Assembly: GCA_016840035.1 (NCBI GenBank)
Contig: JAEOTC010000037.1
Location: 1-18,264 of the forward strand
Direction of reading: 5' to 3'
From: Candidatus Hodarchaeota archaeon
Lineage (GTDB): Archaea; Asgardarchaeota; Heimdallarchaeia; Hodarchaeales; Hodarchaeaceae
Length of the DNA: 18,264 nucleotides
Below the pieces are notes generated by a model. That model was given only the letters and a program-made list of their open reading frames with translations. It did not search any database and was not told where the DNA came from. The translations under genes and the position numbers were made by a program. This document shows positions 1-18,264 of this stretch, piece after piece (positions within the stretch are counted from its first letter, which is position 1; each line of letters opens with the position of its first letter).

Positions 1-1431
1 GGAGTCAAAGGAAATACCCAAACTGTTACGGATTATTATTTTTCTGTACCAGAAGAAATAGTAGAAGTGAGTATCAATGTTGATGGATCGGTTGACATAG
101 AATATTGGATTACATTTACTGTAGAAGCAGGGGGACAACCTATTGACATCGTAGATATCGGCTTTCCGAATAAACACTATGATTTAGGAAGTGTAACCGC
201 AGAGGTGAATGGACATCCTATTACAAACATAAAAAAATCAGAAGTGATTAGTATTGGAGTGGAAATCCATCTTGGCCAATACACGATTTATAATACAGGA
301 GTATTACATGTTAAGGGCAATCAACCGTATATGATATTTGAGGATACCGAAGAAGAAGAGATGGCAAGTGTAGAATTTGGCAATACGTGGTGGAATTCCA
401 GATTTACGACAGAAACAACAAATCTAACGACGAGAATAATCTTTCCCACAACAGTAGACAATACCACCTATACCAAATACCACCATTCTCACGCACCTGA
501 TCAAGTATATCTTTTGGGAAATGGGCGGAAAGTATTCGAATGGAATGAACCAACCGCTTCTCCCTCAATACAATATCAATATGGAGTTTCATTTCCAAAA
601 GAAGGAGTAAAATGGTACACGAGTATCCCACCCACAATGGAGGAGGTACTAATGACAGTAGCATTCGTGGGATTGATTATAGTAGTAATTATGGTTGCTA
701 GCTTAGTTTACATGCGGAAGCGTCGGCGGATGATGGATTATATACCGCCATTTGTCTCAGTGCCTACTGCAGGACCAATAACTAATCTTCGGAGAGAAGA
801 AGTCGCTATTGTCTTAGAAAAGCCTGTGAATGTCACCATCTCAATGATTCTTTTATCACTAATAAAAAAAGATCTCCTTCGACAGTTATCCCCAGATGAT
901 CCGTTTCCTACACCTGTGGAGACAACATCAAAAAAATATCTCCGAAAATATGAGCGAATAGTGTTGAATTCCATTCGTACAGATTTAACAATTGATGAAG
1001 ATATGATGGTGAAAGCAATATCCAGTTTGGTCAAAACAACGCAACGACGATTACGCGGGTATTCGTATGAAAGAACAGTAGAATATTATGAGAGGTTAAT
1101 ACAAGATTCTGTTGCTACAATCAAGTCAGAACCCGATCCACAAAATATCCCCAAAAAAGCGTGGTTTTGGGCAATTTTAGATGAAGAATTTCTTACAGAT
1201 CTAGAAGTCCAAATCCTAGCACGGGAAGAATACTACGGTTATTATCCGTGGTATTACCATTATGGATACCATAGATGGTACTGGATCCCCCATGGAAGAG
1301 GATTCACAAGTCGAGTGACACGTGTAAGTCATCCACTTCCTGTAAGTAGTGGAGGAAGTTCAAGAGGAGGCGGAGGATGCGCATGTGCCTGTGCAGGCTG
1401 TGCTTGCGCGTGTGCCGGAGGTGGACGATGA
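1..1431 (+). CDS. DUF2207-like single-pass membrane protein with Gly/Ser-rich, Cys-Ala repeat C-terminal tail (5'-truncated); putative radical SAM substrate
   Basis: Frame 1 is open from base 1 (GVKGNTQTVTDYYFSVPEEIVEVSINVDGSVDIEYWITF), so the true start lies upstream and GTG at 67 is probably internal. The beta-rich ectodomain starts with a DUF2207-like 'V.IN.DGS..I.' pattern. One TM helix (VLMTVAFVGLIIVVIMVASLVYM) is followed by RKRRR, then a helical segment (ISMILLSLIKKDLL...LRKYERIVL), then the tail SSGGSSRGGGGCACACAGCACACAGGGR*. Confidence 0.8.
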   Translation, partial: GVKGNTQTVTDYYFSVPEEIVEVSINVDGSVDIEYWITFTVEAGGQPIDIVDIGFPNKHYDLGSVTAEVNGHPITNIKKSEVISIGVEIHLGQYTIYNTGVLHVKGNQPYMIFEDTEEEEMASVEFGNTWWNSRFTTETTNLTTRIIFPTTVDNTTYTKYHHSHAPDQVYLLGNGRKVFEWNEPTASPSIQYQYGVSFPKEGVKWYTSIPPTMEEVLMTVAFVGLIIVVIMVASLVYMRKRRRMMDYIPPFVSVPTAGPITNLRREEVAIVLEKPVNVTISMILLSLIKKDLLRQLSPDDPFPTPVETTSKKYLRKYERIVLNSIRTDLTIDEDMMVKAISSLVKTTQRRLRGYSYERTVEYYERLIQDSVATIKSEPDPQNIPKKAWFWAILDEEFLTDLEVQILAREEYYGYYPWYYHYGYHRWYWIPHGRGFTSRVTRVSHPLPVSSGGSSRGGGGCACACAGCACACAGGGR

Positions 1432-2757
1432 ATGAACCCAAATGATGAACCAACACTCATACATCAACGAGAAGGCGAAGATGAAGACATCCGATTACAT
1501 CTACGTAGACAAGGGGATAGTGGCCTCCTAATAATTAATGCATCAAGAATATTGAATCTCAATTCCACCGCTACCTTTTTTGTGGAAAGAATTCTGAAAG
1601 GAAAAGCGGATGCTACAATAATTAAAGAGCTTAAAAGTCAGTACCGAGTAAGTGAGCAGCAAGCAACAACAGATCTACAATCCTTGAAAGAAATGATCCA
1701 GACACTCTCAACAACGGATGATATCTGTCCAATCCATTCCTTACAAGTGGAAGAATCTAATCTGACAGAGCTGAATCTAACAGCTCCTTTACGGATGGAT
1801 TTAGCAATCACTTATCGTTGTAATAACAAATGTGAGCACTGTTATAATCAACCAAATTCACCAAATGCAAGCGAATTAGATATTACTCAATGGAAAACGA
1901 TCTTAGAAAAACTGTGGGAAATCTCTATCCCCCATGTAACATTCACAGGGGGAGAACCAACATTACGCTCGGATTTACTTGATATGATTGACCATGCAGA
2001 GAATATCGGAATCGTTACAGGATTGGTAACAAATGGTCGAAATCTAAAGGATATCACTTATGTGGACAAACTAGTAAATTACGGACTAGATCATTTTCAA
2101 ATAACATTAGAAAGCGTAGATGAAAGAATTCATAACCAAATGGTCGGAAATGATCAGGCGTGGGGTGAAACAGTCGCTGGAATTAAAAATGCCATAGATA
2201 CCCCAATTTATACATTAACAAATACTACGTTGACTCGACTGAATGCACCAAAAATCGAAGAGACGGTGGAATTCCTAGCGAGTCTGGGAGTAGACCAATT
2301 TGCCTGTAATTCAATAATATATGCAGGAAAAGGGGAAAATGTATCCAATATGGCATTTACAGAGAAAGAACTGCTCCCCATCATAGAGACAATACAGGAT
2401 GCGGCAGATGCATATGATCTACAATTCATATGGTATACACCGACCCGATACTGTGAACTGGATCCGAATAACTTGGGATTAGGGGTGAAACGCTGTTCAG
2501 CGTCCCATTTAGCAATGGCAATCGAACCAAATGGAACGGTTATACCCTGTCAGAGCTACTACCAAGGATTAGGTAATATCCTCAATGATAGCTGGGAAAG
2601 TATATGGAATAATCCGATATCTAAAGACCTACGCACCCATAGAAATGTCCCAGACGAATGCAGAGATTGTAATCAACTAGACCTTTGTGGGGGTGGCTGT
2701 CCTTTGAGTTTCTATCGGGAAGAATACATTTGTCCCGAAAGCCAAGTAAATGATTAA
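1432..2757 (+). CDS. Radical SAM/SPASM domain protein with N-terminal PqqD-like (RRE) domain; peptide/protein maturase type
   Basis: CxxxCxxC motif CNNKCEHC (nt 1819-1842), FTGGEPTL and VTNG motifs. SPASM cysteines: KRCSA...IEPNGTVIPC...ECRDCNQLDLCGGGC. The N-terminal ~95 aa resemble PqqD (GLLIINASRILNLNSTATFFVERI...IIKELKSQYRVSEQQATTDL). ATG directly abuts the upstream TGA. Confidence 0.93.
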   Translation: MNPNDEPTLIHQREGEDEDIRLHLRRQGDSGLLIINASRILNLNSTATFFVERILKGKADATIIKELKSQYRVSEQQATTDLQSLKEMIQTLSTTDDICPIHSLQVEESNLTELNLTAPLRMDLAITYRCNNKCEHCYNQPNSPNASELDITQWKTILEKLWEISIPHVTFTGGEPTLRSDLLDMIDHAENIGIVTGLVTNGRNLKDITYVDKLVNYGLDHFQITLESVDERIHNQMVGNDQAWGETVAGIKNAIDTPIYTLTNTTLTRLNAPKIEETVEFLASLGVDQFACNSIIYAGKGENVSNMAFTEKELLPIIETIQDAADAYDLQFIWYTPTRYCELDPNNLGLGVKRCSASHLAMAIEPNGTVIPCQSYYQGLGNILNDSWESIWNNPISKDLRTHRNVPDECRDCNQLDLCGGGCPLSFYREEYICPESQVND

Positions 2758-2759
2758 CC

Positions 2760-3542
2760 TTGAACGACCAAATTAATACAATCGAAGCAGCACAGTATTT
2801 CAATAAGCTCTATGAGGAGCAGCTGACATGGACAGGAGCCACTAGAAAACGACTCTACCGAAAAATGAATTTGTTTCATATGAAACAGATCCTTGAAGTA
2901 GGATCAGGAACTGGTGCAGTTTTACGAGAAATTCAGACAATAAATCCACGAGCCACAGTAGTGGGGATTGATTGGAATTTAATTGCATTAAAGTATTCCA
3001 AAGGAGCATCAGATAATCCAAGTTTCATTCATGGAAAGGGAGAACTCTTACCTTTTGCAGCAAATAGTTTCGACATTACAGTGTGTCATTATTTTTTAAT
3101 GTGGGTAAAAAAACCACTTACGATCTTAGAAGAAATGAAACGAGTGACACGTGAAGGGGGATGGATAGCCTGTTTAGCTGAACCCGACTATGGAGGAAGA
3201 CTTGATTATCCTGCAAGCGAGCTGTGGTCAGAACTCTTTCAAGGATCATTATCGGCCCCAGATCCTTTCATTGGACGGAAATTACGAAGTCTCTTTTTTC
3301 AGGTAGGATTGAAAGCTGAAGTAGGACTTCAGTCAACAGTACTCTCCCCCGATATTGTAAAAGGCCTATACGGGTTAGAAATGGAGAAATTCAACCACTT
3401 CATACCGGAGAACAATTCAAAGATAACATTACTTCAAGAGATACTCGACTCATACGAATCTGAAGAATACTTTTCGTTTATGCCAGTATTTTATGGACTG
3501 GCACGCAACGTGAAAGAGGGAACCATCAAAAGTATCGAATAA
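2760..3542 (+). CDS. Class I SAM-dependent methyltransferase
   Basis: Motif I ILEVGSGTG, acidic motif VVGIDWN, LPFAANSFDITVCHYFLMW, EMKRVTREGG and AEPDYGGR. TTG start is 2 nt after the radical SAM stop. Confidence 0.92.
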   Translation: MNDQINTIEAAQYFNKLYEEQLTWTGATRKRLYRKMNLFHMKQILEVGSGTGAVLREIQTINPRATVVGIDWNLIALKYSKGASDNPSFIHGKGELLPFAANSFDITVCHYFLMWVKKPLTILEEMKRVTREGGWIACLAEPDYGGRLDYPASELWSELFQGSLSAPDPFIGRKLRSLFFQVGLKAEVGLQSTVLSPDIVKGLYGLEMEKFNHFIPENNSKITLLQEILDSYESEEYFSFMPVFYGLARNVKEGTIKSIE

Positions 3543-3814: not shown

Positions 3815-5149
3815 ATGAAAAAATATTCCAACCAGGGGAAACACCTATCTTTCAGCTTACTGATAGCGATCGTACTGTTGGTCAACTTATCTCCTATCAT
3901 CTCAATAGATACCGTCCAAAATCATCAATTTTCTGCCGCCATAGGGAGCGAAATGGCTGATCCAGAAGAAATCATGCAAGATGTGTACCAGTACCTCTGG
4001 GATGGGGAGTATGGAGGAGTTTTCACGGAAATGAATAATGAATTATTAGTCACAGATAACAGCAAAGCCCTAACGAATCTTCTGCAACTTGGAAGAGCCA
4101 ATTTTTACCTGTATGAAGAAACTAATAATTCACAGTATCTTACACAGGCAGAAGCACTAATGGATTATATCAAGTACTATCAGGTGGTACAAGGAGGATA
4201 TATCTCGACGTTAGATCGTACATTTACCCAAATCATAGCCCCATACGTATCATTCAATCTCATGTCTCCACTTGTGAGCTACTATACAGAAATGTACTTT
4301 TATACCAGAAATAATACTTATCTTGACACAGCAAGAACAATCCAGAGGTTTATCGAAGAATATTTTTATGATAGGATAAATGGGGGATATTATAAGCATC
4401 TAGATTCCAATAACCAGCCTTACACGAACTTTTATCGAGTCGTGGGAGGGTATAGCTATTATCTAAGGTGTCTCCTTGATTTATACGAAACAACGAATGA
4501 GAGTGCATATCTCGAAAAAGGGGGATCTGTACTCAATGAAACCATTGAAATAGCTTGGGATTGGGAGTTGGGCTATTTTTATCCATATATAGATAATACA
4601 AATCAACCTGTGACAGCAATAGACATTTTCTACGTGGGTGAACAACTCTCGTTAGCACGTACTCTATTAAATTATGCAAAATATCATTGTAAAGAATATT
4701 ATGAAAATTTAGCGCTGTTGATAGTAGCAAAGGTATTTGAACATGGAATCAATGCGGAGGGGTATGTAATTCACAGTTTTTCTCCGGATGGAACGATTGA
4801 CAAAGCTGATACGTTTGTGAGTCGACAATATCATGCATTAAATGTCCTTGAAATACTCAAAGAAACACATCCCCTAACACAAACCCAGAGGGAATTCCTG
4901 AATACAAAAAATACTCTTCTTTCTAATTTTCAATTACAAACAACGAAATTGTATTTCCGAACAGCTAACGATCCCACAATCATTCCGTGGGTAAATTGTG
5001 GGGTGATCATGGCACTAAAACCGCAATTAAGTGATAAACCACCACCAAATACCGTAATAATCAGCGGATTTAGTTGGTTAGGAATAATCGGGGTCATCTG
5101 GATCATCAGGCTATCCAAGAGAAGAAAACGAAAAGATCTGGAGAGATGA
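3815..5149 (+). CDS. Secreted, C-terminally anchored (alpha/alpha)6-barrel protein (six-hairpin glycosidase / AGE-epimerase / GH76-like)
   Basis: N-terminal signal peptide. Repeated (W/Y)D...G(G/Y)(V/Y/F)(F/Y) motifs (LWDGEYGGVF, FYDRINGGYY, AWDWELGYFY) alternate with T.N..YL..(A/G) helices. C-terminus is SGF, a hydrophobic helix, then KRRKRK. Confidence 0.7.
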   Translation: MKKYSNQGKHLSFSLLIAIVLLVNLSPIISIDTVQNHQFSAAIGSEMADPEEIMQDVYQYLWDGEYGGVFTEMNNELLVTDNSKALTNLLQLGRANFYLYEETNNSQYLTQAEALMDYIKYYQVVQGGYISTLDRTFTQIIAPYVSFNLMSPLVSYYTEMYFYTRNNTYLDTARTIQRFIEEYFYDRINGGYYKHLDSNNQPYTNFYRVVGGYSYYLRCLLDLYETTNESAYLEKGGSVLNETIEIAWDWELGYFYPYIDNTNQPVTAIDIFYVGEQLSLARTLLNYAKYHCKEYYENLALLIVAKVFEHGINAEGYVIHSFSPDGTIDKADTFVSRQYHALNVLEILKETHPLTQTQREFLNTKNTLLSNFQLQTTKLYFRTANDPTIIPWVNCGVIMALKPQLSDKPPPNTVIISGFSWLGIIGVIWIIRLSKRRKRKDLER

Positions 5150-5174: not shown

Positions 5175-6311
5175 TCAGTTTTTTAGCCCTATATACATAT
5201 TTATCCCTTCTCCTTCAGTGTAAATCTTATTTTTGGCTAATTTTGTCAAATTACTTAGTTTTTTAACACCATACTTCTCTTTCCAAGTCGGATCGATTTT
5301 CGTTAAGTGAATACCTAATACAGATAACCTCACCCTTTTTTCATCGGTTTTCTTTTCGAGTTTTTTTAAGGTTTGAACCAGAAATGCAACAGCTTGATCC
5401 TGTGACGGGGCAGATTTCTTAAGTGTCTTCTGAGGAAGAGTATCTGAATTTAAATATAAGGAGAGAACTTTTCCTTTGCGTTGAGGAGTTAGAAATTCGG
5501 TTTTACTCACTTCAAGCAAATGTACTAAGGATTTGACTCCAAAACGTGTTTTCCAATTGTTATGTATCCTAGACATAGCTATTCCTAGTTCACTTGCCAA
5601 AATCCGTCCATCAACCTCAGGGGAGGTATTTTGAATGGCCTGATGAAGGAAATCTTGAATCTCCACCTTCTGTTTTTGACTGATCTTAGGTGGAGATTTC
5701 TTAACAGTTTTTGGGCGTTTTTCGATCTTATTGGCGATTGCTTGTTTTTTCGATTTGCGGAGGAATTGTTGAAGAAAGTCTTTGGTCAATTCAAAGGTTT
5801 CATCAGCAAGTTGTCTGAGATCTGTAGAGGTGGTCATCTTAGGACCATGAACTAATCGAACGATAACGCCAGAATGTTTAGCAATTTCAACAGAGGGAAT
5901 AAAATCTCGATCCCCTGCAACTAACACGATAAGACTGACCTGTTGACTAGTGGCGAGATGAACCATTTGGACAGCAAGTTGAACATCAACTCGCTTTTGT
6001 TCTTTAGCAATAATTACTTCTTGACAATGTGGACACTTGGCTTTCCTTTCCACAACATCTCCAAGGATTACTTCGAATCTGGGTAAGACTTTCAATCCGT
6101 CGTGAAAACTCTGACGGTAATTATCTTTACCATCAAAATAATAGGTGCGAAGACGAGAAGCAGGATGACATAATTCGTCACTCAATGTAATTAAATCAAT
6201 GTCAGAGACACCGACTTCCTTACGAATAAAATTCCAATAGCTGCCATCGAAAAGAACGGCCGCAATGGAGGGAAAAGCCTGTTTCGGAGTATTAAATTGT
6301 CGATCACTCAA
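5175..6311 (-). CDS. NYN (LabA/DUF88, PIN-fold) nuclease domain with two C-terminal LOTUS/OST-HTH-like domains
   Basis: NYN motifs LFDGSY, YYFDG, QKRVDVQLA, VAGDRDF and LADETF. A Lys-rich linker precedes two repeats of L.S.LG...W...(F/Y)GVK.L..L. TTG start with GAGGGA upstream. Confidence 0.85.
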   Translation of the reverse strand: MSDRQFNTPKQAFPSIAAVLFDGSYWNFIRKEVGVSDIDLITLSDELCHPASRLRTYYFDGKDNYRQSFHDGLKVLPRFEVILGDVVERKAKCPHCQEVIIAKEQKRVDVQLAVQMVHLATSQQVSLIVLVAGDRDFIPSVEIAKHSGVIVRLVHGPKMTTSTDLRQLADETFELTKDFLQQFLRKSKKQAIANKIEKRPKTVKKSPPKISQKQKVEIQDFLHQAIQNTSPEVDGRILASELGIAMSRIHNNWKTRFGVKSLVHLLEVSKTEFLTPQRKGKVLSLYLNSDTLPQKTLKKSAPSQDQAVAFLVQTLKKLEKKTDEKRVRLSVLGIHLTKIDPTWKEKYGVKKLSNLTKLAKNKIYTEGEGINMYIGLKN

Positions 6312-8540: not shown

Positions 8541-11500
8541 TCAATCGGTTTGAGTGTCCGTCTCAAATCTACTTGCAAACTTGGAATAAACTAACCCAAT
8601 AGCAACAGAAATTAAACCCAAAAGGCCAAAACCGACAATAGTCTGTAAAGTTTCAGTTAATTGAGCAAGATATACAGCGGAATAACCGATACTAAGACCA
8701 ATTATGCCAAGTCCGACAATTCGCCATTCTCTTTTCATTACCCAAAAGCCATACAAAATACAGAGAAATGCAGTTGCTCCAGCTGAAAAGTAAAATAATT
8801 CCATTAATTCAGGCCAGAATAACGTATAACCCCAGATAATTAGGAGGGAGAAAAATAATCCGCTATCACTTATGGTTCTCGGAGTGCCAATTCGAGTAAT
8901 AAAAACATAGTAAACACCAATAAGAACTGAAAATGCGATCATCAGTAAAGGAAGGATATCCGCCATTTCAAGTATGTCTAGACCTTTGGTACTCAACTGT
9001 AAAAGGCAGAGATAGAAGATTAGAGGATTAAGGATAGCCATTAATTTGTAAGAATCAACATACCAAGTTTCCCGTGTAGTAAGATCCAAATGCCAATTAT
9101 TCACCTCAGGACGGGCAGAGAATATCGTTTTCCCTAAACCAATCAAAAAACCATGGACTACTACTTGGAAAAGAAATCCAAGAACTATAAACGAAAAGAA
9201 CTCGGATTCTGTTATGGGATCAATCAATGGCAAGCGAAGAAGAAGACTAGCACCATAAATCGTAAAACCATTTGCAAGAACCAGATACCGTTCTATTCCC
9301 AGTAAATACAATCCAAATAGCAGAGAAAAAAGTACTAGAATATCAAAAATTAAAAACGAAAAAATAGGAGAGAGAATAGCACCAAAAAAACCATAACAGA
9401 CTATCGTGTTAATAAATCCTAAAGAAGAAAAAAGCAGAAAATTCAATCCAAAATGATCCTTATCGATTGGGAGAAATTCTTCCCTCACCCGAAAGAGGTG
9501 AGTTAGTAAATAAATCAGACTGAAGAGAAGAGTAATGGTGTGAAACATCCAACCATCAGATGAATTTACTGAATCTAGAAGATAAAACTGAAAAACTGAA
9601 ATTCCTGCGGCGGAGAGAACAAAATAGCTATCAACCAGATGATTGATCTGTTTACGGAGAATTAAAAGGTATCCAAAGGAGAATGGAGTTACCAAAGTAA
9701 TGAAGATAACAATAAAAATATTCCAACTTGATTCAAGTCTGAGCTGTTGAAGGAAAATAATAATCTGAACGATAGCAAGCAAAGGAAGAATAAAACGATA
9801 ATTACTACTACTTTCTGTAGAATCTTGGGTCGAAGGGAGGGCGAAAAGAAAATAAAGGATAAAAAGATAACCATAACATACAACCACATACACAAGAGTC
9901 ATACTCTCAGAAATGGAAGACATTGACACGTAAAGATGCATAACTACAAGGGGAATTAATCCTAAAATAAATTTGGTCTCATCATTGATAATATACGCAT
10001 AAAAATTCTTCGTTGTAATCAGTAATACACAAATAATCCAAAGAAAACCAAGAAAAGCCCAATTATGCGAGTAAAGAAGCTCAGGAATTGAAATAAAAGA
10101 ATGTACTAACTCTGCAAACTGAGTAAAAGAATCTTTTAGAATTAAAATTAGAAAAAGAACAGCTAAAAATGTGCTATTGATAATCGAATAAAATTCCTGG
10201 ACAAGCTTAAGATCAATAGACATTTGTGAGTAATTTTGGGAGATTAGCAATAAAAAGGGGAATAATGCAAATCCTAAGATGAGTCCAATCATATCCTCTC
10301 CAGGTTGAATTATCACTGTTAAAAGAAAAAGGAAGACAGAGAAATAGGTCACAAAATCAAACATCGAGACTTTTCTGATGGAAAAACTCGAAATATCAAT
10401 CGTAGTATCACGATTCGAGCTCCAAAGGATGCAGACAAGAATCAGATATATTACAAAGATTGTATTGGTTACAAAACCCAAGATATTAATGAAAAAACTG
10501 AGAAAAATCGGGCCCAGAGCAATAAGAGTTAAATGCTTGCGATTGATAGTTTCCCAAAATCGTGGATGTACTTCAGAAGGAAATTCACGAGCAACAAGCC
10601 AATTAAAGAAAGTTAAATATACTAAAACAATAAGAGAACCGTTAACCTCTGGTAACACAAGAACAATATCATCCATGAAACCAAGGGAGAGAAACCAAAA
10701 TAATTGAGCAAAAAGAACAATGACGAATGCGACTCCCAGATCTTTTTGACGGAAAGCCAAACTTACAAATGCAGTAGTAAAGATCAGAAAGAGTGGAAGA
10801 AACACTGCACCAGAAATATCTCCTAAATGAAGTAGAAAGAAACTTGCAAATACAGGAGTGACTGAAGTTAACGAGAGATGTTCACGAGTAAAGAGATCAA
10901 AAAATTGATCAGGAATGCCAAGAGGAAAGATGTAACTCACGATAAGATTGAGAAGAATCAGAAAAACTAGGAGAATCATCATGCCATTAATATCAGAGGA
11001 AAACCTATTCTCAACCAAAAGATCAGAAGAATTCGGCAGAAACAGAAGAAATAAGGAAGATAACTGAATAAAGGCGGTAAAAACCATATCCCTTCGACGA
11101 AACGCAATTCCAATAAAGATTAAAAGAAAGAGGGCAAAGTTAATCCATAGAAATCCAAAAAGATAATCGAAGTCCCAATTAAATAACGCAAATGAAGTAA
11201 GATTGTTAACAAAGAGTTGAGTAGAGAGATGCCAGATTAACCAGAGGGAAATGAAAAAACTTTCAAGAAACAGGAGGCTAGAATCATGGCCCCAAGCAGT
11301 GATTACGACGATAAGGATTAATAGAATACACAAAAAATAGTACAGCAGATCATCGCCTCCAACAGGGCTGAAGGGATGAAAACGTAAGGCAAATAAGAGA
11401 AGAAAGTAAATTCCAATGGCTAAAAATGCAAGAGAATACGCAATCGAAGGGATATACTGATTGCGAACTTTAAACCTGAGAATGAGAAAAGAGAAGACAT

Positions 11501-12482
11501 GAAAGATGATGCCCAGGAGAAAAACACCCAGAAAAATCATCATTGATTTTTGTGCCTCTGAAAGCTGAACGCGGGTACTAGACCACATGATAAAGCCAAA
11601 TAGAGAGAATAATATTGCTCCGATTCCCACCCAGCGCAACCAGTTAGCTCCTATAGCAAATTCCCATCCTTCTTCGGGCCGAAAACGGTTGAACCAACTG
11701 GGACTAGAAGGTGAGGATTGATCAGATGGAAGATCAAATGGGCGACCAATCACTTCCGTGGAAGCAGAGGGACGAGGAGACACTGGAAGTTCAGAAGGTT
11801 TTATAAGAGGGTCACTCTCTGGGTGAAGAAATTGGATTTGAGCTTGAAGAAGATCTAGAGTGGATTGTGGTAATCTTTCCTCGACCGCCCAGTAAAACAC
11901 TCTAGTAAAGAACTTATGGAGTGGAAGAGCTTCACTCTTACTCGGTCGTACAGAATTTGCCCGAGAGATCACGTTTTGGAGGAAAGAGACATTGAGGGAG
12001 TTCCCATCTCTAAGGATTCGTTGAGCAGCAAGAAATGGTTTTCCAGAATAGGCCATAAGAATAGCCCATTGAGGTAGAAACCGAAGAGAAAAGTATTTCT
12101 GATTGGCAACAAGTTCTAGTCGGGATTGAAGAGACGCACGCGACCCTTTAAATTGATCTAGGAGGACAAAAAAACGCTCTTTACCTTCACTTAACGATAA
12201 ATTAGGAAGAGAAAGAATGTTTTCAGAAATCGCATTCTCTAAATCCCGTCTAGCAACCATAGAAACTTTCAATTCAGGTTTTTTCTGTGAAACTTGGGTG
12301 GGAACCTGTGAACGGAAAGTGAGTAACTGTTCAATCGATTCCAATCTCGATTCGATAGTTACTAATCGCTGAGCTTGGCATTGAGAGTTGAGACACAAAA
12401 AGATTTCTTCCCCACTCTTAGTAAATCCTTTTTCTAAGGGTTTCTTACAAAATTCACAACGATTTGCGGACATTCCCTTCAC
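8541..12482 (-). CDS. Large polytopic membrane protein, DUF2339-like, with N-terminal zinc ribbon
   Basis: N-terminal CEFC...CLNSQC, a short coiled coil (IESRLESIEQLL) and a Pro/Ser linker. Then WEFAIGANWLRWVGIGAIL (DUF2339-like) and ~1000 aa of consecutive hydrophobic helices. The start may be ATG at 12473. Confidence 0.7.
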   Translation of the reverse strand: MKGMSANRCEFCKKPLEKGFTKSGEEIFLCLNSQCQAQRLVTIESRLESIEQLLTFRSQVPTQVSQKKPELKVSMVARRDLENAISENILSLPNLSLSEGKERFFVLLDQFKGSRASLQSRLELVANQKYFSLRFLPQWAILMAYSGKPFLAAQRILRDGNSLNVSFLQNVISRANSVRPSKSEALPLHKFFTRVFYWAVEERLPQSTLDLLQAQIQFLHPESDPLIKPSELPVSPRPSASTEVIGRPFDLPSDQSSPSSPSWFNRFRPEEGWEFAIGANWLRWVGIGAILFSLFGFIMWSSTRVQLSEAQKSMMIFLGVFLLGIIFHVFSFLILRFKVRNQYIPSIAYSLAFLAIGIYFLLLFALRFHPFSPVGGDDLLYYFLCILLILIVVITAWGHDSSLLFLESFFISLWLIWHLSTQLFVNNLTSFALFNWDFDYLFGFLWINFALFLLIFIGIAFRRRDMVFTAFIQLSSLFLLFLPNSSDLLVENRFSSDINGMMILLVFLILLNLIVSYIFPLGIPDQFFDLFTREHLSLTSVTPVFASFFLLHLGDISGAVFLPLFLIFTTAFVSLAFRQKDLGVAFVIVLFAQLFWFLSLGFMDDIVLVLPEVNGSLIVLVYLTFFNWLVAREFPSEVHPRFWETINRKHLTLIALGPIFLSFFINILGFVTNTIFVIYLILVCILWSSNRDTTIDISSFSIRKVSMFDFVTYFSVFLFLLTVIIQPGEDMIGLILGFALFPFLLLISQNYSQMSIDLKLVQEFYSIINSTFLAVLFLILILKDSFTQFAELVHSFISIPELLYSHNWAFLGFLWIICVLLITTKNFYAYIINDETKFILGLIPLVVMHLYVSMSSISESMTLVYVVVCYGYLFILYFLFALPSTQDSTESSSNYRFILPLLAIVQIIIFLQQLRLESSWNIFIVIFITLVTPFSFGYLLILRKQINHLVDSYFVLSAAGISVFQFYLLDSVNSSDGWMFHTITLLFSLIYLLTHLFRVREEFLPIDKDHFGLNFLLFSSLGFINTIVCYGFFGAILSPIFSFLIFDILVLFSLLFGLYLLGIERYLVLANGFTIYGASLLLRLPLIDPITESEFFSFIVLGFLFQVVVHGFLIGLGKTIFSARPEVNNWHLDLTTRETWYVDSYKLMAILNPLIFYLCLLQLSTKGLDILEMADILPLLMIAFSVLIGVYYVFITRIGTPRTISDSGLFFSLLIIWGYTLFWPELMELFYFSAGATAFLCILYGFWVMKREWRIVGLGIIGLSIGYSAVYLAQLTETLQTIVGFGLLGLISVAIGLVYSKFASRFETDTQTD

Positions 12483-14467: not shown

Positions 14468-17158
14468 ATGAAAGGACGAGGATTGATTGTCTTTCTATTG
14501 TTCGTTATTATACTGAAAATCCCGTACAATCACAATCATCCTAATGAAACAATACCTAGTCTATCCTCAAACTCAAAACTGGAACAAATCGGTCCGAATG
14601 ACACTACACAACTCATAGAACCAGAAAATGAAGAGAAGAATTGTTCTATTTTTCTTTCGTCCCAATTATCTTGTGAAACATTGTTATCAGTTATAGACAC
14701 ACAAAGAAGTTCTTCAAATGCAATTCTGACAGGACAATATTGGGATTATGGAAATGATACAGATGGAGATGGGAAATTCAATCAATTGGTAATAGTTATT
14801 GAAGTCAATATAACACTGGGAGGGAATTATACCATTACTGCAGAATTAAACTCAAACCAAAGTGATTACTCATGGAATGAAAAAGTAATAGAGAATAAAG
14901 AGGAAGGAAATCAGAACATCACCATACCTTTTGAAGTACAGGAAGTTTATTCAGAGCAGCTAAATACCTCATATAGAATAATTAAAACACAAATCCTATC
15001 GAATAGTCTACTAATTGACGAGGAATATTCCAATTATACAACTAGACAGTACCAATATGATGAATTTGACCCACCAAAAATTTACTTAACAGGTTCATAC
15101 AGAATAAGGGAAAATTATAATGAATTTGGATTTATTAACCGATTTTATCTCGAAGCAAATTTTGAATTCGCACAAAGAGGATATAATCATCTGAATCTAA
15201 GTTATACGACTGTAAAAGATAATTCCTCATACTGGGTAGTAGAAGATGTTTTTAGAGAAGCAGGAAACCATGACATCAATTTTTACCTGGAACCAACTGC
15301 ATTGTACCTGCAAAGAATCAACACAGCATACAATTTTACGTTGATCGAGATCACAGATGTGGAAGAAAGAAGAGTAGGTCACGCTAACATTAATATCACT
15401 ACTCGAGAGTATAATTATAATGAGTTCGCACCTCCTGCTGTAATTCCTTCCGGATTTAGTGTCATTAGACCATTGGATATGGATGACAACAGAAAATTCG
15501 ACACACTCTCAATATTAATTGGTTTAGACATAACAGCAAATGTTAATAGCTTCAAAGTGTATGTTGAGGTGGTATGTGGAAGCTACAAACGGTCAGCTCA
15601 AAAATCAGCAACCCTAAAAGAGTTTGGATTGGTAGAACTATATGTGGAAATTGCTACGTTACGAAATTACCTCATATATACTGGACAACCAACCGTTGCA
15701 TTCGACATGACCTATATTCGTATTTCTCATCTATATGGGGAGATTATTTATGAAAGTGAGGACATTCTTTTTAGGACAGAACGTTATCGTTCAGAGGAAT
15801 TTGACAGTCCACCGGTAGCAATTGAAGGAAATCAAATATTTGACTATTTTGCAGCATTAGAAGAATGGAAGGGAGAAGGGACGGATGAAAATCCCTATAT
15901 AATCCAAGATTTAGTCATAGATAACCTTGTAGACATTCAACCAATAATTGAGATACGAAATACTACACGGAGGTTCATAATTCGAAATTGTAGGTGTGTT
16001 GGAAGTGGAATAGGAATCCGACTAATAGATGTGAGCAATGCAGAATTATTTAATATTACGATAATTGGTGCAGAAATAGGCATTGAGCTGCAAAGAGGTA
16101 CAAATATCACGATAAATGGTAATTATATCACTTCAGAGAACACAATAGGCATGATATTCAAGGACACCAAGTCAATAATCTCAACCGAAAATGAAATTAC
16201 AAATGCCTCACAAGCAATTGTGGTCATAAACACTCGAAATATCCAGCTAATCAATAACAACCTCTCAACGACAGATGGTGAAAAGGGGATCATTTTAGAA
16301 GAAGTATTTTCCAGTATGATAATAAATAATACCATAGAAGGGTTTTTACACACTGGAATAAAGTTACATGCTAGTTCCTATTGCGTTTTGGATCATAATT
16401 TCTTCATAGAGAATCGAGATGCAATTGAAATAAGTGGTACGATTCCACATTCACCCCATCATTCAAGAGAAAATAGAATTTGTAATAATTTAGTCATTAA
16501 AAATCGTAACTATTGTATTATATTCGAAGATTTGGCTATGGACAATATAATCAATGGAAATACTTTTTCATGTAATCGGCCAGAAGGTAGTTACTTGGCA
16601 TATGATGATGGAATCAATAATATGTTTCAAGGAAATTATTGGAACACATCAAGTGAGTACATAATTCAAGGAGACAACAAACACGAGGAGCAACGACTTA
16701 CTTTCGCTCCTCATCTCTCGCCACCAATAATTCTCAGACCCAACGGTGGAGAAAATCTAACGAGAGAAATAAGAATTCATTGGGACGCAGGAAACCATTC
16801 ATTTAACATGGGATTGAACTACACTCTATATTTTTCAGATAATAATGGGACCAGCTGGAATTTTTTAACACAAAATTATAGTCTACGATTCACTTTTAGC
16901 GGAAAACTTGGGTATTACTACAACTGGGAAATTAACTATGATCAGATCTCACCTGGGACAAATTATCTCATCAAAGTAGAAGCTGTGGACCCCTTAGGAT
17001 TCACGATCATTGATACATCGGATTATTCTTTTTCCGTAAGTCTACCCCCAGATCCAGTGTCCAAGACACAGACAGATCCACGAATGTTATTCTTTACTGG
17101 TCTAGTTGTATTATTTGTGATTAGCTATCGATTAACACGTAAAAGAAATAAATTTTGA
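14468..17158 (+). CDS. Cell-surface protein: three ~120-aa beta-rich repeats, right-handed parallel beta-helix (NosD-like), Ig/Fn3-like domain, C-terminal TM anchor
   Basis: Signal peptide. Repeats end in EFDPP, EFAPP and EFDSPP, with a DTDGDG motif in repeat 1. WKGEGTDENPYII precedes beta-helix coils (GI.L...N..I..N.I). PNGGE domain, then MLFFTGLVVLFVISY plus RKRNK. Confidence 0.85.
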   Translation: MKGRGLIVFLLFVIILKIPYNHNHPNETIPSLSSNSKLEQIGPNDTTQLIEPENEEKNCSIFLSSQLSCETLLSVIDTQRSSSNAILTGQYWDYGNDTDGDGKFNQLVIVIEVNITLGGNYTITAELNSNQSDYSWNEKVIENKEEGNQNITIPFEVQEVYSEQLNTSYRIIKTQILSNSLLIDEEYSNYTTRQYQYDEFDPPKIYLTGSYRIRENYNEFGFINRFYLEANFEFAQRGYNHLNLSYTTVKDNSSYWVVEDVFREAGNHDINFYLEPTALYLQRINTAYNFTLIEITDVEERRVGHANINITTREYNYNEFAPPAVIPSGFSVIRPLDMDDNRKFDTLSILIGLDITANVNSFKVYVEVVCGSYKRSAQKSATLKEFGLVELYVEIATLRNYLIYTGQPTVAFDMTYIRISHLYGEIIYESEDILFRTERYRSEEFDSPPVAIEGNQIFDYFAALEEWKGEGTDENPYIIQDLVIDNLVDIQPIIEIRNTTRRFIIRNCRCVGSGIGIRLIDVSNAELFNITIIGAEIGIELQRGTNITINGNYITSENTIGMIFKDTKSIISTENEITNASQAIVVINTRNIQLINNNLSTTDGEKGIILEEVFSSMIINNTIEGFLHTGIKLHASSYCVLDHNFFIENRDAIEISGTIPHSPHHSRENRICNNLVIKNRNYCIIFEDLAMDNIINGNTFSCNRPEGSYLAYDDGINNMFQGNYWNTSSEYIIQGDNKHEEQRLTFAPHLSPPIILRPNGGENLTREIRIHWDAGNHSFNMGLNYTLYFSDNNGTSWNFLTQNYSLRFTFSGKLGYYYNWEINYDQISPGTNYLIKVEAVDPLGFTIIDTSDYSFSVSLPPDPVSKTQTDPRMLFFTGLVVLFVISYRLTRKRNKF

Positions 17159-17585: not shown

Positions 17586-18264
17586 ATGATTCCCGTCCTA
17601 GCTATTCTAATGTTGGGGTGTTTAATTAATTCTAACGACCTAGCATTAGGGGAGAAAGTACCAAGAATAGGGGAAAACCTGAGCATTCATCAAACAAGTA
17701 ATGAACCAATACAAATTCACAGCAATAAGGAATTTCGGGAACAAGCAATTAGTAATAATTGGATCGGAGAGGGAAGTATAGAAAATCCCTATGTAATAAC
17801 AGGATTAAGAATTGAGGGCCCCTCATTCCAATCTATCACATATGATCTACTGGATATAAGGAATACCACAGTCAATTTTGAGATAAGAGACTGCGTGTTA
17901 GTAAATGGCCGATGGGGAATACATTTAGATGAAGTGAAAAATGGAAAAATCATCACGAGCACTATCAAAAAAAGTAGTGGAGCGGGGATTGTGATCAGGA
18001 ACTCTGAATTGATAATTCTAGAAGTCAATATAGTCTCATCAAACGGGGGAGCGGGAATTTTTCTGGAGAGGTCAAATCAAATCCAAGTGAAGAACAATAC
18101 TATTACTACGAATGGAGCAACAGGGGTAGTACTTTATACAGTGGAGCACTGTCTTCTGAATTACAATCAAATTATCAGTAATATGTGGAGTGGAATAACA
18201 ATCCATGATTCAAACTCTATTTTGGTATGTCACAATACATTGGCTCACAACGGGGAGTACGGCC
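17586..18264 (+). CDS. Secreted right-handed parallel beta-helix (NosD-like) protein, 3'-truncated (not in ORF track)
   Basis: Open frame to the window end: MIPVLAILMLGCLINS...EPIQIHSNKEFREQAISNNWIGEGSIENPYVITGLRI...LLDIRNTTVNFEIRDC...GIHLDEVKNGKI...GIFLERSNQIQVKNNTI. Paralogous to the beta-helix part of 14468-17158. Confidence 0.88.
   Translation, partial: MIPVLAILMLGCLINSNDLALGEKVPRIGENLSIHQTSNEPIQIHSNKEFREQAISNNWIGEGSIENPYVITGLRIEGPSFQSITYDLLDIRNTTVNFEIRDCVLVNGRWGIHLDEVKNGKIITSTIKKSSGAGIVIRNSELIILEVNIVSSNGGAGIFLERSNQIQVKNNTITTNGATGVVLYTVEHCLLNYNQIISNMWSGITIHDSNSILVCHNTLAHNGEYG

Follow-up and report, generated by a model that had tools for sequence, protein, structure and literature searches.

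What does a peptide-modifying radical S-adenosylmethionine (SAM) enzyme act on when no short precursor peptide is encoded beside it? The question is raised by contig C181 of an Asgard archaeal genome (87% complete), whose full length of 18,264 nt is the window analysed here. Positions 1-3542 are filled by three genes in the same direction. Gene 1 (1-1431, +) encodes a membrane protein with a Cys-Ala tail. Gene 2 (1432-2757, +; 441 residues) encodes an enzyme with a PqqD-like recognition element (RRE) of the kind found in systems for peptides that are made by the ribosome and modified post-translationally (RiPPs), a radical SAM domain and a SPASM domain. Gene 3 (2760-3542, +; 260 residues) encodes a class I SAM methyltransferase. 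Radical SAM enzymes of the RiPP type have been studied almost wholly on short secreted peptides, and QHNDH is a rare protein substrate. From the comparisons given below we consider it likely that the gene 2 enzyme modifies the Cys-Ala core of the gene 1 protein in place, and that the methyltransferase tailors the product.

An inspection of the letters made before any database search, here called the sequence-only reading, had described this gene order with gaps of 0 and 2 nt, and the coordinates bear it out: gene 2 begins with its ATG at 1432, immediately behind the TGA of gene 1, and 2 nt separate gene 2 from gene 3. Read from base 1, gene 1 meets no stop before its TGA at 1429-1431, and 476 residues lie in the window, from which residue numbers are counted here. 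The ends of contigs C241 and C181 overlap exactly over 127 nt (window 1-127; C241 1-127, -). This is the k-mer overlap of the assembly; the two contigs are neighbours, and gene 1 is intact across the join. C241 supplies the missing 24 codons, MKILKISPYHIIGFLFLITILPLT, which form a signal peptide, and the full protein has 500 residues.

The Cys-Ala tail and its linkage to the enzyme gene

The product of gene 1 ends in ...FTSRVTRVSHPLPVSSGGSSRGGGG-CACACAG-CACACAG-GGR-stop. The Ser/Gly linker and the doubled CACACAG unit were already noticed in the sequence-only reading, and translation to the TGA confirms them, with ...SSGGSSRGGGG standing directly before the core. The core with its stop codon occupies 1378-1431 (+) and its codons include both of those for Cys and all four for Ala. 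Gene 1 has over 4,900 homologues, and the conservation of the tail was examined in the best 120. A tail of the form (CA)n[G](CA)nGGGR ends 118 of these, the remaining two being incomplete at the end. The names of the 120 include Hodarchaeales, Thorarchaeota, Chloroflexota and Deltaproteobacteria, and the closest homologues carry the names Hodarchaeales, Promethearchaeota or Heimdallarchaeota. In an alignment of 50 sequences (A1), residues C460-R476 are invariant save two near-invariant positions, although identity between domains of life is only about 36% over the whole proteins. The synonymous codons of the tail differ freely among genomes.

A second conserved element, FTSRVTRVSHP (1303-1335, +), precedes the core, and its F435 and P445 are invariant in the same alignment. 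The motif F-x3-[VIL]-[TS]-x2-[TS]-[NH]-P is present in 115 of 119 tail-bearing homologues (gene 1 and 118 of the best 120 matches), always 22-32 residues before the first Cys (median 27). Between the two lies a flexible Gly/Ser/Arg linker (1336-1377, +; residues 446-459), modelled with a predicted local distance difference test score (pLDDT) below 50. Across the homologues the linker consists of 38% Gly, 24% Ser, 10% Pro and 10% Arg. We infer that the motif, in the form F-x3-V-T-x2-T-N-P, is a candidate docking site for the RRE. By analogy, RiPP precursors are laid out as a motif, a spacer of fixed length and a core, and here such an arrangement forms the end of a large protein. The last ~45 residues of gene 1, with motif, Gly/Ser linker and (Cys-Ala)n-GGGR core, would thus behave like a built-in RiPP precursor. 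The tail itself looks like a substrate: its protein sequence is invariant and its codons vary, it is terminated by the stop codon, and it is predicted to be disordered behind a motif at fixed spacing.

Short tail-bearing proteins also occur in the databases. In 119 of 120 such proteins the upstream motif is retained; they appear to be C-terminal pieces of the large protein, and most come from contigs of about 1-3 kb. The N-terminus of one protein, P0245, resembles that of a lipoprotein, and this protein is a possible chimera.

The sequence-only reading had proposed a pattern search for the tail together with a synteny check. We scanned a DNA pattern for CACACAGGGR followed by a stop codon in one genome per prokaryotic species, which gave at least 119 loci, in archaea and bacteria alike and co-occurring with the radical SAM gene. 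All of these matches end in a true stop codon. Among 400 Asgard genomes the pattern is present in 59, and a reversed control pattern gave no match. The loci are found in at least ten phyla, among the matches listed mostly in Anaerolineae. The other bacterial hosts listed are Planctomycetota, Acidobacteriota, Aminicenantes, Hydrogenedentes, Fermentibacterota, Zixibacteria, Coatesbacteria, Bacillota and Pseudomonadota, and the archaeal hosts are Methanomassiliicoccales, other Thermoplasmatota, Heimdallarchaeota and Promethearchaeota. The cassette is hence not confined to one genome: it is represented by thousands of database proteins in at least ten phyla, with a core that is identical across the divide between bacteria and archaea. 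One of the hosts, Ornatilinea apprima P3M-1 (locus L064), is cultured, which makes the prediction directly testable.

We clustered the open reading frames (ORFs) of 123 loci, that is the 119 pattern loci listed, three long bacterial contigs found via protein look-ups, which have the same gene order, and the window. Only five families recur: the tail protein, the radical SAM enzyme, a pseudo-radical SAM paralogue, the methyltransferase and a zinc-ribbon protein. No conserved small ORF, protease, peptidase, amidase or transporter recurs in the 123 loci. In the window, the ORFs of the flanking intergenic regions are neither Cys-rich nor conserved, and the flanks hold no plausible Cys-rich small ORF, protease or transporter. 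The absence of a small precursor, protease or exporter nearby, noted from the letters alone, thus holds, and a separate conserved small precursor, which the sequence-only reading had named as a sign against itself, is not seen near the cassette.

Another such sign was to be a majority of tail-bearing homologues without an adjacent radical SAM gene. What we found is the reverse: among the matches listed, 98 of about 104 loci with enough flanking sequence (~94%) have an orthologous radical SAM gene beside the tail gene. The loci fall into three tail types. Type A, (CA)3-5G(CA)3GGGR, comprises 85 loci: 75 have the radical SAM gene on the same strand directly downstream, 2 have it at another place in the locus, and in 8 it is not seen, three of these having less than 300 nt of downstream sequence. 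In type C, (CA)5-6GGGR, it is directly downstream on the same strand in 12 of 12 loci. In type B, (CA)2-3G(CA)4GGGR, with 19 loci, it is upstream in 9, and 9 of the other 10 have the upstream flank cut by the edge of the locus. Five of the six non-adjacent loci (L009, L012, L039, L055 and L088) have an orthologue of the enzyme elsewhere in their own genome (E 1e-100 to 1e-138), and the genome of the sixth, L035, has a second complete locus, L086. The order of the type B loci is zinc-ribbon gene, radical SAM gene, (pseudo-radical SAM gene), tail gene, methyltransferase gene. Since this order is different, the linkage of tail and enzyme survives gene rearrangement.

The association was also examined from the side of the enzyme, in 83 genomes of the class to which the window belongs, using matches to gene 2 at E <= 1e-60. 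The clade of gene 2 is present in 41 of the 83, and in 38 of these 41 the tail pattern is its immediate neighbour, on the same contig and the same strand. No genome among the 83 has the tail without the enzyme. In the genus of the window, 11 genomes have both and 11 have neither. These genome counts include related genomes and are hence not independent. In the three genomes with the enzyme only, the contig ends at the radical SAM gene (G024); the RRE is truncated and the upstream gene is tail-less, which we read as a decayed copy (G012); or the enzyme is 35% identical and stands beside a different Cys-repeat tail (G079).

A tree of 82 enzymes was computed by FastTree, with local support values only and with an uncertain rooting on paralogues that lack the cluster. 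The enzyme of the window groups with that of L070 (type A), and the pair is sister to the type C enzymes of Heimdallarchaeaceae (local support 99). The type C enzymes of Thermoplasmatota form one group (97), as do the bacterial enzymes except L086 (97). The seven type B enzymes are in one group of nine (97), together with two of type A.

The divergent tail of G079, a genome of the order Hodarchaeales, is a separate observation. Its gene (L134, contig C857, 2803-3153, -) is cut by the contig end, ends in (CHSA)8...CVAGGGH behind a Tyr-rich stretch and precedes the 35%-identical radical SAM/SPASM gene (1336-2802, -). Among 24 genomes of the order of the window, the (CHSA)n pattern is found in G079 only.

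Predicted anatomy of the three proteins

The gene 1 protein was modelled by AlphaFold2 on 50 homologues, with a mean pLDDT of 84.9. An extracytoplasmic beta-sandwich domain (28-606, +; residues ~10-202) is modelled at pLDDT >90, with the beta-sandwich fold at about residues 14-199 of the full model. The sole strong hydrophobic segment is at residues 216-238 (hydropathy peak 2.87) and is followed by RKRRR at 239-243, as the sequence-only reading had stated. This transmembrane helix with its basic end occupies 646-729 (+), and residues 213-244 are modelled as one long helix. A predicted cytoplasmic, DUF2207_C-like globular domain follows (736-1302, +; residues 246-434), in which residues 265-420 form a helical and winged-helix domain. 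Folded alone, residues 246-434 obtain a pLDDT of 87.5 and a predicted template modelling score (pTM) of 0.85. A short helix is modelled over FTSRVTRVSH, and the protein is disordered from residue 449. We infer a single-pass protein with the N-terminus outside and the C-terminus inside the cell. The inside location of the C-terminus is adopted because of the positive-inside rule, applied to RKRRR, and because the radical SAM enzyme would have to work in the cytoplasm.

The ectodomain is most similar to the membrane-proximal lumenal domain of Ost1/ribophorin I (Z 16.2, root-mean-square deviation 2.8 A, 180 residues), and the N-domain of M1 aminopeptidases is a lower-ranked match (Z ~12). The cytoplasmic domain shows weak similarity to GOLPH3/Vps74 (Z 6.6 and 6.0; next match 3.2). 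The ribophorin I and GOLPH3 folds both come from the eukaryotic glycosylation machinery, which is a lead only. A eukaryote-specific link was set aside for now because most members of the family are bacterial and the GOLPH3 match is weak.

A more general relationship is to DUF2207 (PF09972 / PF20990). In the ESM Atlas, the cytoplasmic domain matches DUF2207/DUF2207_C clusters with template modelling (TM) scores of 0.56-0.79; one cluster that is 100% DUF2207/DUF2207_C matches at 0.56 over 147 residues. By language-model features, gene 1 scores 0.93-0.97 with clusters that carry DUF2207 in part or for the most part, and one homologue is named DUF2207 in UniRef. Gene 1 and four of five tested homologues have no Pfam match at E up to 10, PF09972 and PF20990 included, and the fifth homologue matches DUF2207_C at 16.4 bits, below the gathering cutoff of 33. 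At the level of fold and features, the layout appears similar, with a beta-sandwich outside the membrane, a helix within it, a helical domain on the cytoplasmic side and a C-terminal tail rich in Gly. However, the classical members are not known to have a Cys-Ala tail or a linked radical SAM enzyme. Judged from the models, gene 1 is a divergent DUF2207-like single-pass membrane protein, and the cassette offers a first functional handle on this large group.

Gene 2 runs from the ATG at 1432 to the TAA at 2755-2757. Its Pfam matches agree with the domains recognised in the sequence-only reading: PqqD (PF05402, 29.9 bits with a cutoff of 23.4; residues 35-85), Radical_SAM (86 bits) and SPASM (42.7 bits), and gene 3 likewise matches a SAM methyltransferase family. 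Orthologues of gene 2 from Asgard archaea and bacteria are 48-54% identical. The N-terminal RRE/PqqD-like region is at 1492-1686 (+; residues ~21-85). In an alignment with 47 orthologues (A2), R21, H23, L24, R25, N36, A37 and A47 of the N-terminus are invariant, and so is the CX3CX2C motif of the radical SAM cluster (1819-1842, +; C130, C134, C137). The SPASM cysteines (2452-2730, +) follow the seven-Cys pattern C355-x12-G368-x4-C373, C410-x2-C413-x5-C419-x3-C423 and C433, of which C433 is mostly conserved, with an additional upstream C341. Two auxiliary clusters are expected from this pattern. With an intact CX3CX2C, the full SPASM set and a PqqD-like RRE the enzyme looks functional, and together with an adjacent, co-inherited putative substrate these are the features of RRE-dependent radical SAM/SPASM maturases.

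None of the NCBIfam equivalog cutoffs is reached by gene 2, the best scores being three- to four-fold too low: PqqE 130.9 bits (cutoff 381), MftC 90.9 (265), SkfB 89 (300), NirJ2 131.7 (500), TIGR04347 138 (525) and SbtM, TIGR04082, 68.7 (350). TIGR04463, the family of CrpC, is outside the best 25 of 85 matches. The nearest relative of solved structure is the thioether-forming SkfB (E 4.6e-29), nearly tied with PqqE, which makes a C-C bond, and SuiB, anSME and CteB come next. An assignment of the chemistry by NCBIfam or structural similarity was rejected because thioether-forming, C-C-forming and tetrapyrrole-modifying enzymes score alike. We also co-folded the enzyme with gene 1 residues 405-476, SAM and three 4Fe-4S clusters; the score of 0.09, against a mark of 0.32, is evidence neither way.

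Gene 3 starts at the TTG at 2760, 2 nt behind the TAA of gene 2, and matches Methyltransf_11 with 67 bits. The TTG start is supported by the homologue from L070, which aligns from residue 2. The methyltransferase family recurs in 82 of the clustered loci. Its best relative of solved structure is LahSB (PDB 6UAK; E 2.9e-10), a leader-independent class I methyltransferase that esterifies the free peptide C-terminus of lanthipeptides (PMC11285071). Methylation of the C-terminal carboxyl group would suit a core that ends exactly at the C-terminus with GGGR. However, the match is limited to the SAM-binding core (residues 43-143) and hence indicates no substrate. PtyS provides a precedent for S-methylation. 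Judging from these analogies, S-methylation of thiolates and C-terminal carboxyl methylation are equally possible.

Proposed chemistry of the core and competing explanations

Taken together, the following sequence of events is proposed. The cytoplasmic RRE-radical SAM/SPASM enzyme would dock on the gene 1 protein, and the Cys-Ala core would then be oxidised via 5'-deoxyadenosyl radical chemistry. At least one methyl group would be added by the gene 3 enzyme, either to thiolates, whether left over or newly made, or to the carboxylate of the free C-terminus. As the genes are accompanied by neither a protease nor an exporter, the product would remain attached to the membrane protein. If the enzyme does modify the core, the foremost candidates for the product, at somewhat under an even chance, are S-C thioethers of the sactionine or ranthionine type between Cys sulfur and neighbouring Ala or Gly carbons. 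They are favoured because RRE-bearing SPASM enzymes on Cys-rich targets mostly make thioethers, the modification of CrpA included. A thiooxazole at each X-Cys unit, of the type made by SbtM, is a less probable product that still deserves attention, and what is left would fall to other Cys-centred chemistry such as formylglycine formation or epimerisation. SbtM abstracts a hydrogen from the Cys beta-carbon in a Gly-Cys motif, giving a thio(seleno)oxazole with a reactive thiolate (PMC9204691). Such chemistry would be a good fit for an (Ala/Gly-Cys)n array on which an S-methyltransferase acts next, but the substrate of SbtM is a short Sec/Cys (selenocysteine/cysteine) peptide of limited distribution.

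Several observations weigh against this proposal or parts of it. The non-Cys residues of the core are Ala and Gly only. These are uncommon acceptors, and the well-studied ranthionine enzymes use Asp, Glu, Gln, Asn or Thr. PqqE, NirJ2 and AhbD-type enzymes score equal to or higher than SkfB as relatives of gene 2, and CteB and SbtM score lower. C341 may be a fourth Cys ligand of auxiliary cluster I. A four-Cys auxiliary cluster I is the arrangement of anSME and SuiB, not that of CteB, and C341 in this role would make thioethers a weaker guess. With a single divergent Asgard query, the methyltransferase was found in 45 of the 68 loci that have sufficient flanks, and it may be accessory. As to topology, gene 1 has a second, marginal hydropathy peak at residues 268-288 (Kyte-Doolittle 1.73). 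If this were a membrane helix the tail would be outside the cell; we do not read it as one because it falls within a globular domain that is modelled with confidence (pTM 0.85).

Modification of a whole protein by such an enzyme has a recent precedent. In Methanococcus voltae, the RRE-radical SAM-SPASM enzyme CrpC puts thioether (ranthionine) crosslinks into the 28.8-kDa Cys-rich protein CrpA (PMC13692751, 2026). As here, an enzyme of this architecture stands beside a Cys-rich protein and not a short peptide, and it is the repetitive C-terminal region of CrpA that is modified. However, CrpC belongs to TIGR04463, and in CrpA, which has not been described as membrane-bound, the C-x-x-Q/D motifs are carried by ten repeats of 17 residues. 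The gene 1 product is a membrane protein of DUF2207-like type, its (CA)n-GGGR end of 17 residues lacks Gln/Asp acceptors, and a methyltransferase is linked to it.

The sactipeptide and ranthipeptide systems (SkfB/SkfA, AlbA/subtilosin, CteB/SCIFF) share the RRE, the radical SAM domain and a SPASM or twitch domain, and their products are Cys-centred thioethers. Their substrates are short leader-core peptides that are cleaved and exported. At the cassette there is neither a short leader-core precursor nor a linked leader peptidase or exporter; instead, a 500-residue membrane protein with an internal motif would be modified, with only Ala and Gly as acceptors.

The sequence-only reading had further compared the tail with the membrane proteins of TIGR04222. 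The comparison stands as an analogy and does not extend to homology, as gene 1 has no match to the TIGR04222 model; neither gene 1 nor the Ornatilinea homologue has any NCBIfam match at E up to 0.01, TIGR04222 included. TIGR04222 proteins have unstructured Ser/Gly-rich C-termini with interspersed Cys, predicted to be periplasmic, and are encoded beside an MNIO (DUF692) enzyme; modification of the whole protein was proposed from bioinformatics only, and one third of the genomes with TIGR04222 have no MNIO gene (PMC12452194). The modified Cys of bufferins chelate copper (PMC12452194). The differences are an O2-dependent iron enzyme in place of a radical SAM enzyme, an unrelated membrane protein and a looser association.

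A bolder form of our proposal, which we regard as unlikely, is that the cassette is an anaerobic radical SAM counterpart of the O2-dependent MNIO systems. The tail would be converted to thiooxazoles or a dense thioether ladder, with thiolates tuned by the methyltransferase, to give a membrane-tethered appendage, metal-binding at multiple sites or redox-active, at the cytoplasmic end of a conserved, receptor-like surface protein. If true, this would be a new, permanent post-translational "cofactor tail" in Asgard archaea, Thermoplasmatota and many bacterial phyla, and a possible anaerobic parallel to the copper-binding bufferins.

Neither the class of enzyme nor protein modification of a RiPP-like kind is thus new (CrpA and QHNDH, with the TIGR04222-MNIO pair as a proposal). 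A full-text search of the published literature found no description of the substrate family, the invariant tail, the motif at fixed spacing or the cassette. The cytoplasmic end of a conserved membrane protein of 500 residues appears to contain the complete logic of a RiPP pathway, and the ~45 residues from the motif onwards are a minimal substrate with which to learn the function of a large uncharacterised SPASM clade.

Three other explanations were considered. According to the first, the tail itself is a metal or iron-sulfur site, a metallothionein-like CxC array that may sense or buffer the metal or redox state on the cytoplasmic face; the enzymes would be linked without remodelling the tail covalently and might for example use or load the site. 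In an extended strand, six to seven Cys at alternate positions would all point to the same side; in addition, Gly abounds in the flanks, and the model shows the tail as disordered. The Cys-rich RiPP-like analogues chelate copper, as bufferins do, with TIGR04222 proteins as proposed MNIO substrates (PMC12452194). However, such a site has no need for an adjacent RRE-SPASM enzyme in ~94% of the loci, nor for enzyme clades that track the tail type. The docking-like motif at fixed spacing is typical of enzyme substrates, and plain metal sites are seldom identical residue by residue across bacteria and archaea. We therefore consider this explanation improbable.

A releasable small molecule or cofactor could instead be built on the tail, the membrane protein being merely its carrier. 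PQQ (pyrroloquinoline quinone) is made in this way from PqqA and mycofactocin from MftA, and pearlin-type chemistry is a further example. The better-scoring relatives of gene 2 include PqqE and the mycofactocin maturase, and the core is at the extreme C-terminus of gene 1, as it is in MftA. What makes this quite improbable is that no peptidase, amidase or transporter is conserved with the cassette among the at least 119 loci listed, that conservation of the 450-residue carrier is high and extends to its outer domain, as one would not expect of a scaffold alone, and that sacrificing a 500-residue membrane protein would be very costly.

Hardly any weight can be given to a different substrate, either an unlinked peptide or the E-x-P-K-W end of the zinc-ribbon protein with a Lys-Trp crosslink as in streptide and the tail protein as a membrane partner: the zinc-ribbon protein is present in 72 loci with an invariant final P-K-W, and WgkB-type and SuiB-type enzymes are detectable as relatives of gene 2, but the zinc-ribbon gene was found neither in this genome nor beside the cassette in related Hodarchaeales loci, where enzyme and tail persist, and the enzyme clade almost never occurs without the tail in the class of the window.

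Further genes of the loci and of the contig

The zinc-ribbon gene (for example L064, 6440-6811, -; alignment A3) is located just upstream of the tail gene in bacteria, Thermoplasmatota and Promethearchaeota. The protein has ~125 residues, two membrane helices, a CxxC...CxxC arrangement and an invariant C-terminal E-x-P-K-W. Its adjacent Lys and Trp recall the Lys-Trp crosslinks of some SPASM enzymes. An alignment-based search of this genome gave as its best match an unrelated 82-residue zinc ribbon (E 0.0024).

The pseudo-radical SAM paralogue occurs in Anaerolineae and in type B loci (L064, 2121-3278, -; in L010 between the radical SAM and methyltransferase genes). It has kept the RRE-like N-terminus and the barrel and lost CX3CX2C and all SPASM cysteines, with 2-3 Cys left, and is probably a non-catalytic partner. 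Both this gene and the zinc-ribbon gene are absent beside the cassette in the genus of the window, and for this reason the three genes of the window are taken as the minimal core.

Outside the conserved cassette, the gene at 3815-5149 (+) encodes a protein of 444 residues with a signal peptide and weak matches to N-acetylglucosamine 2-epimerase and to the (alpha/alpha)6-barrel of GH76. It ends in a membrane anchor followed by RRKRK, and is probably a surface-anchored glycan-active enzyme. An NYN-domain protein is encoded at 5175-6311 (-). The datasets listed as containing this stretch are DNA from marine sediment metagenomes, and none of those listed is RNA. The 1,313-residue ORF at 8541-12482 (-) has an N-terminal zinc-ribbon-like CxxC...CxxxxC and dozens of hydrophobic segments rich in Phe, Leu and Ile, with no Pfam match; its T-rich codons account for an AT skew that is strongly positive on the + strand at 9-12 kb. 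At 14468-17158 (+) and 17586-18263 (+) there are two NosD/right-handed beta-helix proteins, the second of which runs off the 3' end of the contig.

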